Source: Candidatus Helarchaeota ASGARD archaeon Hel_GB_B (GTDB lineage Archaea; Asgardarchaeota; Lokiarchaeia; Helarchaeales; HEL-GB-B). Taken from it: a stretch of DNA of 7,564 bases. Every line of letters starts with the position of its first letter. The stretch's first letter is position 1. The notes beneath the pieces are model-generated. The model made no database searches. It saw only the letters and a list, made by a program, of their open reading frames with translations, and was not told where the DNA came from. The position numbers and the translations under genes are program-made. This document shows, piece by piece, positions 863 to 7,564 of this stretch. The DNA is taken from positions 1 to 7,564 of the forward strand of contig SUPR01000133.1 of assembly GCA_005191425.1 (NCBI GenBank). Direction: 5' to 3'.

Positions 863-1645
863 TTAATGAAATATCATCCCACCAGAGATGGTTAGCGACT
901 GCCCTGTCATATAATTAGAATCATCAGAAGCTAAAAAGAATGCCACATTTGCGACATCATCTGGAGAACCCCATCTTTTTAATTTAATATTAAATCCATA
1001 TTCATCAAGTGCTACCTGCATTAACTCTTCGTTCATTTTATAAATATTGGTCTTAATCATCCCGGGACAGATGGCATTGACCGTTATATTTGGTGCTAAT
1101 TCAATTGCTAAACATTGTGTCAGTCCAACGATCCCGAATTTGCTAATTGAATAAGCTCCTATTAATTTATGCCCAACTTTACCTGCAATTGAAGCTATAT
1201 TGATAATTTTACCACGTAATGGTTTCAGTTCCTTTTGACGTCTCATCTTTTGAGCAAAATATTTACACATCATCCATGTACCCTTTAAATTAGTATTAAT
1301 AACTGTATCCCAATCTTTACTTGAAACTTTAATTAATGCCCCTTCAGGCCCTGAAATTCCCGCATTATTCACAAGGATATTTAAGTGTTCATAGCTCTTA
1401 TAAGTCAAATCTACCAAATCTTTGATCTGACCTTCATTACTAATATCTGTGGTGCTTGTAATTACTGAGATATCCGGGTACTTTTTAATGATCATACTTT
1501 TCGTCTCTTCAATAGTATCTGAATTGATATCACAAATAACAAGTGACGCACCTTCAGATGCAAATCTGAGACTAATTGCCCTACCAATCCCACTACCCGC
1601 CCCAGTAACTAAAGCAATCCTTCCTTTTAATCTCTTTCCTTCCAA
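863..1645 (-). CDS. Classical short-chain dehydrogenase/reductase (FabG-like NAD(P)-dependent oxidoreductase)
   Basis: Rossmann motif TGAGSGIG, NNAG, catalytic Ser (IAS) and YSISK (YxxxK), VNAICPG, and C-terminal DDVANVAFFLASDDSNYMTGQ. The track starts at 1657, but TTG at 1645-1643 lies 5 nt after GGTGA (1655-1651, minus strand) and is the more likely start. Acidic residue after beta-2 (ICDIN) suggests NAD preference. Confidence 0.93.
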   Translation of the reverse strand: MEGKRLKGRIALVTGAGSGIGRAISLRFASEGASLVICDINSDTIEETKSMIIKKYPDISVITSTTDISNEGQIKDLVDLTYKSYEHLNILVNNAGISGPEGALIKVSSKDWDTVINTNLKGTWMMCKYFAQKMRRQKELKPLRGKIINIASIAGKVGHKLIGAYSISKFGIVGLTQCLAIELAPNITVNAICPGMIKTNIYKMNEELMQVALDEYGFNIKLKRWGSPDDVANVAFFLASDDSNYMTGQSLTISGGMIFH

Positions 1646-6419: not shown

Positions 6420-6482
6420 TTTTTGAAATAATAAAATTGCGATTCTATTAATTTATTGTTGGTAAGATAAGAAAATAAAAAT

Positions 6483-6714
6483 TTATTGAGTTTTCATCTC
6501 AGCTTCATTGAAAACAAACCTTGTTAACTTAGTTTGATAATAAGTAGCCCCTCTTATCAAATTTTTCCAACCATTTTCTAATTTCAAATCAATTCCACAA
6601 GCTTCAGCTGGTGTTTTGCCTTTTAAGATTAAATGAGATCTCAAGAAATTGTAATAGACAAGCCAACCATCTAGCCATATCTTAGCTGTTTTCTCACTTT
6701 TTGAATCTCTTAGA
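6483..6714 (-). mobile_element. C-terminal remnant of an IS6-family-like DDE transposase/integrase
   Basis: LRDSKSEKTAKIWLDGWLVYYNFLRSHLILKGKTPAEACGIDLKLENGWKNLI matches the archaeal IS6-like tail RGFKS..A...L.G...YYNF.RPH..L.GKTPAE..GI.L....W..LI. The catalytic DDE core is absent and no terminal inverted repeats were found. Confidence 0.75.
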
Positions 6715-6743
6715 GAATACACCACCACGCATGTGGGGACAAT
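6715..6743 (-). repeat. Solitary, slightly degenerate type I-E CRISPR-repeat-like unit (not an array)
   Basis: Minus strand reads ATTGTCCCCACATGCGTGGTGGTGTATTC (29 nt) = N5-CCCCAC-4-nt loop-GTGG(T)G-GTG-N5, the layout of I-E repeats such as N5-CCCCAC-N4-GTGGGG-GTG-N5. It is a GC-rich island in AT-rich DNA, and I found no second copy in the window. Confidence 0.55.
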
Positions 6744-7310
6744 TGAAGGCATAGTCTTTGGAATTGTATCTTCAATTTTGCCTTTAACAAATACAATCTC
6801 GTCTTTAGGATATCTTGTTGTGTACATATTTTTTATAACTTCGGGTAATGGCGAAAATCACTATTTAGAAAAATTCCCCTTTTTTCTTTCTTCCATTTAT
6901 CAACAGCATATATTTTTTTATTTGATATCCTATAACTATCTTCTGTATGTTTAGACATTCCCTCAAATGTATCATAAAGATATGTTTTTTGATTTGTTTC
7001 GTTTATTTCAAGGAGATTGAGAGCAATTAACATCATACTACCACCTTTCCACACTCTACATTCAACAAAATCACCATATTTTTTTAAAATTAACTATATA
7101 TTCAACTGCTTTATAAAAATTATAAATTCTTTCTTTGGAAGTCATGTTATAATTTTTGTATTTCTTATAGATTTCTCCAAATTCACTATCAATAATCGGT
7201 ACCGAGTTGGATGTTATTTTTGATGTTATTTTCGTTATTCTATATTCGAATAAATTTGTTGATTTTTATATAATTCTTTTCAGCACGGATAATATAGTAA
7301 TCTCCTTCAT
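6744..7310 (-). pseudogene. TylF/MycF (NovP-like) O-methyltransferase pseudogene, 3'-truncated
   Basis: Three frames join into TylF: MTSKERIYNFYKAVEYIV | YGDFVECRVWKGGSMMLIAL..YLYDTFEGM | FSPLPEVIKNMYTTRYPKDEIVFVKGKIEDTIPKTMPS. Lesions: TAA at 7268-7266, frameshift at the T7 run 7079-7085, ECG to ECR in the SAM-binding motif, a second frameshift near 6875-6890, and tandem TAG/TGA at 6863-6858. The C-terminal LRLDTDWYES..DDY part is absent. The 5' boundary is approximate. Confidence 0.85.
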
Positions 7311-7564
7311 TATTAAATTAATTGATATACTTTATAAAAATTACTGAAATACACAAACAAATCTCCAATTTCACTTAATATATTGTAGTTATGGGAAGTT
7401 TAGCCAAGCCAAACCTGGGAAAACTTTCTACAGAAAAATTTGTCTCTTAATTGCCGTTATATGTATTGTCAAGATTGAGCCATAATCTATAAGACGGTTT
7501 TTTGCTTACCAAAATAATGACTAAAAGTTAATCTCAAGGCGAAGGATTCATATTCCTTAAGGCA

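Follow-up and report, generated by a model that had tools for sequence, protein, structure and literature searches.

A single copy of a type I-E CRISPR repeat, 29 nt long, lies on the minus strand of a Helarchaeales contig, exactly at the join between a TylF-type O-methyltransferase pseudogene and the remnant of a transposase gene. A solitary repeat of this kind at this join had been proposed from the letters of the DNA alone, with no database search (hereafter referred to as the sequence-only reading). Homology to real arrays and to a type I-E cas operon confirms it, and demonstrates at the level of sequence comparison that the 29-mer is a genuine type I-E CRISPR repeat copy. The unit is damaged, and is probably a non-functional relic, or scar, left by short-homology joins in a decaying chromosomal region.

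The window, i.e. the whole stretch of DNA analyzed here, is the entire 7,564-nt contig C40 of a 3.54-Mb Helarchaeales metagenome-assembled genome (MAG), which consists of 182 contigs, has 28% GC and is 93.7% complete. The archaeal genes adjoining the IS homologues, the primase-like fragment and the relatives at class level all agree with this placement. The remaining genes of the contig have ordinary chromosomal functions according to Pfam (an SDR, a PEMT/ICMT-like protein and a zinc-ribbon membrane protein), and Rrf2 and TauE genes are located just past the contig end; the contig carrying the unit looks chromosomal. The features discussed below are as follows:

6715..6743, minus strand: solitary degenerate type I-E CRISPR repeat, 29 nt (19-nt core exact in arrays; covariance model R1)
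6744..7286, minus strand: TylF-type O-methyltransferase pseudogene (Pfam PF05711, and tblastn with the intact homologue L011)
6440..6714, minus strand: 5'-truncated remnant of an IS6-family insertion sequence (protein and DNA alignment to intact transposases)
6483..6827, minus strand: chimeric 114-aa open frame (open reading frame list and translation)

The 114-aa open frame spans TylF residues, then the repeat, read as I-V-P-T-C-V-V-V-Y, and then the tail of the transposase. It is also called in four other metagenome assemblies, differing by one residue, and is probably fortuitous. There is an annotation lesson here: three unrelated sequences make up this chimeric frame, which ought not to be annotated as a gene.

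Identity of the 29-nt unit

The minus strand of positions 6715–6743 reads ATTGTCCCCACATGCGTGGTGGTGTATTC. The 29-nt length and the type I-E frame are kept, and the unit folds into a CCCCAC/GTGGUG stem with one mismatch (C7-U20) and a 4-nt loop, in agreement with what the sequence-only reading had described. Taken alone, this hairpin is within chance (z = -0.88, with 36 of 200 shuffles folding as well), and about 20 other patches of the window are equally GC-rich.

I scanned the 19-nt core of the unit against one genome per prokaryotic species. Exact copies were found at 19 loci, and about 14 of these are CRISPR arrays, their period of 61–62 nt being typical of type I-E. These arrays belong to MAGs of Chloroflexi, Anaerolineales, Flexilinea, Planctomycetota, Gammaproteobacteria, Desulfomonile and Acidobacteriota. 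Two chance matches, in Pseudomonas and Longimicrobium, lie outside arrays, and no exact 19-mer was found in viral contigs. In the Pseudomonas caricapapayae contig (L019, positions 54–72), the 19-mer is central in a perfect 34-nt palindrome, GATTCTTGTCCCCAC ATGC GTGGGGACAAGAATC, outside any array; this palindrome may be a chance match or a terminator-like hairpin.

The search for known repeats that had been proposed returned a close match. The closest repeat, ATTGTCCCCACATGCGTGGGGGTGAACCG, is that of an array in a Chloroflexi MAG (L035, JAJYKL010000070), to which the unit is identical at 24 of 29 bases, and at 23 of the first 24. Identity to the repeats of two Lokiarchaeia genomes, G128 and G131, is 22/29, the G128 repeat being GTTGTCCCCACACACGTGGGGGTGTACCG. 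Arrays of this repeat family are held by 10 of the 161 Lokiarchaeia genomes. It had also been proposed to check the host and co-occurring taxa for type I-E Cas proteins. Within the class, a full operon is present in G128, where the array adjoins genes for Cas3, Cse1, Cse2, Cas7e, Cas5e and Cas6e (all Pfam-confirmed), and Cas7e is found in 8 of the 161 genomes of the class. The 33% GC of the G128 locus shows that its home is a low-GC organism, so it does not come from a bacterial contig that was mis-binned. The archaeal repeats of the family end in GTGTACCG, which explains the T at position 25 of the unit.

Compared to six variants of the family, the unit shows 5 mismatches, while every other site in the 3.5-Mb genome, as well as in the reversed control, shows at least 9. 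A covariance model (R1) was built from an alignment (A2) of 13 array repeats, and scores the unit at 23.4 bits. The E-value is about 4e-5 when the window is searched and 0.018 when the genome is, and no other site in the 3.5-Mb genome exceeds 14.4 bits. No Rfam CRISPR-DR family matched an 81-nt slice, even with the E-value limit raised to 10, which is not evidence against the identity of the repeat, as Rfam does not contain this repeat variant. The exact variant, with its ATGC loop and GTGTA handle, occurs in none of the arrays retrieved.

Relative to the family consensus, the unit carries a G20T change, and its 3' end is TATTC instead of (A/T)ACCG. Among the 13 family members G20 and C28 are invariant and C27 nearly so, and all three are altered in the unit. 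The loss of G20 turns a C-G pair of the stem into C-U, so that the predicted hairpin has -7.0 kcal/mol, versus -11.7 kcal/mol in real repeats. The handle of the unit is GTGTATTC, and departs from the conserved 3' ACCG end (8-nt crRNA 5' handle). The changes at G20, C27 and C28 are all from GC to AT, as are most changes in the unit, and this is as expected for unconstrained sequence in a genome of 28% GC. I infer that the unit lacks function.

The junction and the two gene remnants

The junction is found base-for-base identical in four other ENA metagenome assemblies, obtained from different samples and with different assemblers. It is also covered by contigs of four public runs, from hydrothermal-vent and marine-sediment metagenomes, with single contigs bridging it in three of these and two overlapping contigs in the fourth. 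In total, eight independent assemblies or runs share the TylF-repeat-transposase junction, and an assembly artefact is effectively excluded. In one run there is a minor strain variant, with five differences over 117 nt, including a further stem change (G19A); such changes are what neutral drift predicts.

On the TylF side, an intact 266-aa homologue from the same class (L011) aligns by tblastn in three frame segments, 7286–7089, 7075–6887 and 6872–6744. The pseudogene corresponds to residues ∼9–191 of ∼265, contains in-frame stops, and is missing the last ∼75 codons; intact TylF homologues of 263–266 aa are present in genomes of the same class. The homology stops at 6744, at the 5' edge of the unit. 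TylF homologues possess the motif P-S-x-[I/V]-[A/S] at this edge, and the first 5–6 nt of the unit (ATTGTC) are readable as TylF codons too. As ATTGTC equally fits these codons, the left edge is an overlap, with no clean break.

Position 7078 of the window, in the frameshift region of the pseudogene, is polymorphic across runs (two have lost 1 nt, and another two show A>G), and the decay of the TylF gene may therefore be recent or ongoing. One assembly of low coverage (2.4x) no longer follows the window upstream of 7077 (L005 1–1326, compared with window 7078–7564); in that part, the TylF fragment is joined in frame with 385 aa that include a segment resembling the small subunit of DNA primase. 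Either a different strain has undergone another rearrangement, or this contig is chimeric.

On the other side, the C-terminal 76 residues of the 114-aa frame are 72–79% identical to IS6-family transposases with the PF13610 and PF13683 domains. DNA homology to two intact transposase copies (L007 and L008, 81–82%) begins at 6715, the last base of the unit, and continues past the stop codon to the IS terminal repeat, ending at about 6437–6440. The remnant comprises the last ∼76 transposase codons (6486–6714), the stop codon (6483–6485) and a 3' untranslated end that carries the terminal inverted repeat (about 6440–6462). No second copy of this IS6-family element was found in the host genome. The last 1–3 bases of the unit are also readable as transposase sequence.

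Both edges are thus where the sequence-only reading had placed them, with TylF ending at 6744 and the transposase beginning at 6715, the left edge being refined to an overlap. When aligned in register to TylF and transposase DNA, the unit shows no homology beyond its first 5–6 and last 1–3 bases, and the 29-mer is absent from the intact TylF genes and intact transposase genes compared. Since the flanking homologies end at the unit, and the intact alleles do not contain the 29-mer, the stretch owned by neither gene is exactly the 29-nt unit.

It had been asked whether other copies of the transposase carry the unit, and here the answer is negative: the intact copies do not contain it. On its transposase side the unit meets a break internal to that gene, and is therefore not cargo of the insertion sequence. 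Other truncated transposase copies with an upstream repeat were searched for and none was found; the P0005 loci are split, otherwise complete insertion sequences with no repeat. An end hairpin of the IS200/IS605 type was considered as well, and rejected, as the element belongs to the IS6 family by its PF13610 and PF13683 matches, the unit is ∼275 nt from the IS end, and intact copies are devoid of it. In summary, none of the four circumstances listed beforehand as fatal to the proposed identity (no match to a known repeat, an IS200/IS605 hairpin, a normal part of intact alleles, or a misassembly) was encountered.

No un-rearranged ("before") allele of this site was found, and the genomes of the same genus and same order are not syntenic. 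The TylF relatives that a scan of metagenomes returned do not exceed ∼60% identity and lack the repeat, and in the loci retrieved neither TylF nor the insertion sequence was found beside the type I-E arrays of relatives.

Solitude of the unit and related repeats elsewhere

The window contains no spacer, second repeat or cas gene, as the sequence-only reading had stated. A second repeat was found neither within 400 nt of the unit nor elsewhere in the genome, whether at up to 9 mismatches or by covariance model, and around the unit there is no direct target duplication, no partial second repeat and no insert of spacer length. The proposed check of the host for arrays and type I-E Cas genes of its own found none in the assembled genome. 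A k-mer scan for CRISPR arrays in the host genome gave four candidates, all of which are coding tandem repeats, and in this 93.7% complete genome Pfam searches found no Cas1, Cas2, CasE, Cas7e or Cas6 (the latter searched as PF01881), nor did tblastn with the G128 protein set find any type I-E protein. Neither the repeat nor Cas7e is found in any of the six other genomes of the order. As MAGs often miss arrays and cas islands, these host results are to be read as "not found", and not as "absent". The host may still own a type I-E locus, in which case the conclusion that the unit has no function would be less safe.

Searching the host genome by k-mers for a source of filler sequence yielded only chance 10–12-mers, and 86 spacers from the type I-E arrays of relatives gave only chance matches of 13–17 nt to the host genome. 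Among the runs listed as containing the unit stretch, none is an RNA run.

Several related repeats were observed in other genomes. Nearly identical type I-E repeats are common to bacterial MAGs of 52–62% GC (L021, L022, L035 and others) and to Lokiarchaeia loci of 29–36% GC (L039–L046 and L050), which suggests that type I-E systems have been transferred between domains in sediments, and that their cas genes have adapted to low GC since then. At 51% GC, one contig (G061:C163) may come from a bacterium and have been mis-binned. In the G128 operon (G128:C32, L050 1811–3379), otherwise complete, cas1 seems reduced to a 95-aa N-terminal open frame, and a 270-aa open frame with no Pfam match is present where the rest of cas1 and cas2 are expected; the adaptation module of this system may be disrupted.

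In another Lokiarchaeia genome, two intact solitary type I-E repeats, ATTGTCCCCACACACGTGGGGGTGAATGG, each followed by AAAGT, are present at about 7950–8420 of contig G080:C45 (L042 1498–1526 and 1941–1969; context in L145). They are 443 nt apart, and flank a 141-aa open frame with no Pfam family. The surrounding island encodes Cas_NE0113, a Csm6-like CARF-HEPN protein, a HEPN-nucleotidyltransferase pair, an ArdC-like protein and an Eco57I-type methylase, and no match to Cas7e was found in the G080 genome. The two may represent either a pair of solitary repeats belonging to a mobile element or a "giant-spacer" mini-array. A different arrangement is seen in G156:C429 (L047, about 867–956, minus strand), where an orphan mini-array consists of a good type I-E repeat, a 32-nt spacer and a degenerate repeat. 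It is located between a ParE-like toxin-antitoxin pair and a gene for a large secreted protein, in a genome with no Cas7e match.

The repeat family is also present in viral contigs from IMG/VR. L147 (1233–1261) and L148 are mid-GC contigs with single intact copies and no neighbouring repeat, and these copies are candidate RNA anti-CRISPRs of bacterial viruses. L149–L151 hold two-unit mini-arrays.

Origin of the unit

The last option put forward by the sequence-only reading, namely the last trace of a lost array, fits the observations best, given the degenerate state of the unit and its drift towards AT, its place in a pseudogene mosaic on a chromosomal-looking contig, and a genome in which no type I-E system was found. 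A second option, the scar of a rearrangement, stands in part. Its scar half fits best when combined with the loss of an array, while the suggested role of Cas1 finds no positive sign, there being no target duplication and no cas1.

In the proposed scenario, the Helarchaeales lineage, or a replicon in it, would once have borne repeats of the type I-E family, which persists, together with cas operons, in about 5% of Lokiarchaeia genomes as well as in many bacteria of sediments. A chromosomal region already decaying would then have undergone illegitimate recombination at very short homologies. The left join would have fused codon ∼192 of tylF with base 1 of a repeat, with the overlap ATTGT(C), and the right join would have connected the end of the repeat to codon ∼123 of the IS6-family transposase gene, with the overlap ACC/CC versus transposase AAACCTCT. 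Everything else would have been removed, namely the leader and the rest of the array, as well as the 3' part of tylF and the first two-thirds of the insertion sequence, counted from its 5' end. No longer constrained by Cas6e or Cascade, the unit would subsequently have drifted with the AT bias of the genome, G20 becoming T and the CC of the handle becoming TT. I infer the short-homology mechanism and the order of events, as well as the former array at this site, the latter because no "before" allele was found, the nearest intact TylF being only ∼60% identical. Likewise, the gain and then loss of a type I-E system must be assumed, as none was seen in the seven genomes of the order.

This relic reading accounts for the damage to the unit, its solitude, its location among pseudogenes and the failure to find cas genes, and a genome of the same class, G156, offers an orphan mini-array in partial decay for comparison. 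What the relic reading leaves partly unexplained is the coincidence of both edges of the stretch with the ends of the repeat, which for two random deletions in a 61-nt period is estimated at roughly 0.5%. The short overlaps soften this improbability, but do not remove it. The precision of the edges would be explained if the repeat had actively made the junction, either as templated filler copied during break repair from an array located elsewhere in the cell, or through Cas1-Cas2 joining two broken ends to the repeat borders, which are its usual points of attack when spacers are integrated. One repeat, without any piece of spacer at either end, precisely fills the gap between the two homologies, and the short overlaps at both edges fit template switching. 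On the other hand, no cas1 or cas2 was found in the genome, and the ∼29-nt target duplication and 32–33-nt insert that off-target integration would leave are not seen. Cas1-Cas2 is not known to join long chromosomal ends. Templated filler and two deletions can be told apart only with the ancestral allele. Overall I consider an active role of the repeat unlikely, and its narrower form, in which a precise 29-bp repeat was moved into a chromosomal break by a Cas1-Cas2 join or by repair copying one repeat, very doubtful. If true, CRISPR repeats would be genome-rearrangement joints in Asgard archaea, and the intact solitary copies of G080 would be further products of this process.

The option of a solitary-repeat RNA borne by a mobile element is disfavoured. 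Here the unit would be a working RNA, either a Racr-like anti-CRISPR or a crRNA-like regulator, brought in by the insertion sequence or another mobile element and directed against the type I-E systems of Lokiarchaeia; phages and plasmids do use solitary repeats that mimic host repeats as anti-CRISPRs (Camara-Wilpert et al., 2023, PMC10651486). Type I-E systems with the same repeat family exist in the class, intact solitary copies of the family are present in the viral contigs L147 and L148, and two more flank the small open frame of the defence/ArdC island of G080, whose genome has no Cas7e match. The viral and G080 copies are intact, however, whereas the unit has a broken stem and has lost the invariant ACCG handle, and the strain variant adds another stem mutation. 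The unit is within a mosaic of pseudogene and chimeric open frame, not intergenic behind a promoter, and the authors of SRUFinder regard intragenic matches as probable false positives (PMC10651486). It is also not cargo of the insertion sequence, intact copies of which do not carry it, it is located on a contig that looks chromosomal, and no type I-E system or matching Cascade was found in the host or its order. A working RNA is therefore quite unlikely. As for a resemblance arising by chance from a GC-rich, hairpin-capable coding stretch, it would be in line with the non-significant hairpin, the many GC-rich patches in the window, the absence of a match to the Rfam CRISPR-DR models, and the two 19-mer matches outside arrays, in Pseudomonas and Longimicrobium. 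Against this, the unit has 5 mismatches when all other sites of the 3.5-Mb genome and the reversed control have 9 or more, and the model gives E = 4e-5 in the window. In addition, the match begins at base 1 of the repeat and fills the sole stretch belonging to neither flanking gene, and intact TylF and transposase alleles do not contain the unit. Chance is extremely improbable as an explanation.

If the unit is indeed a relic, it is a molecular fossil, indicating that type I-E CRISPR DNA was once present in a Helarchaeales lineage in which no type I-E system was found among seven genomes of the order. It would add to the picture of sporadic gain and loss of type I-E systems in Asgard archaea, with repeats nearly identical to those of co-occurring sediment bacteria. 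The exact fit of one repeat also makes this site a clean natural example for the question of whether repeat borders attract illegitimate joining.

Compared to the type I-E repeats of sediment bacteria and Lokiarchaeia, the unit is alike in its length of 29 nt, its 5' part and its frame of 5 + 6 + 4 + 6 + 8, with 22–24 of 29 bases shared, and the start of its handle, GTGTA, agrees with the archaeal variants. Unlike the repeats of arrays, it is solitary, with no spacer, leader or cas genes, G20T breaks a stem pair, and TTC replaces the conserved CCG. With Racr candidates it shares the presence of a single repeat copy away from arrays and beside mobile-element DNA, but these are intergenic, promoter-driven, intact, carried on viruses or plasmids, and mostly found with a host system of the same subtype, whereas the unit is intragenic and structurally broken, is located on a chromosomal-looking contig, and has a host in which no such system was found. 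It also resembles stand-alone repeat-like elements (crRNA-like regulators, CreTA) in being a degenerate ectopic repeat copy. CreTA-type elements are located inside cas loci, and usually possess two repeat-like units around a promoter-targeting pseudo-spacer (Shmakov et al., 2023, PMC10120712), whereas the unit has neither cas locus, second unit nor spacer.

Array erosion by deletion and recombination has been described (Kupczok et al., 2015, PMC4524480), and eroded or orphan arrays likewise show a mutated repeat, with damage concentrated at the 3' end, in a genome with no cognate cas genes; the G156 mini-array is a comparable case in the same class. In contrast to these, the unit is a single copy directly between fragments of two unrelated genes, rather than next to a spacer, leader or trailer. 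Descriptions already exist of solitary repeat units, of arrays that are orphan or eroded, of degenerate terminal repeats and of ectopic repeat copies (PMC10120712); the one unusual feature of the unit is its exact fit between two gene fragments.
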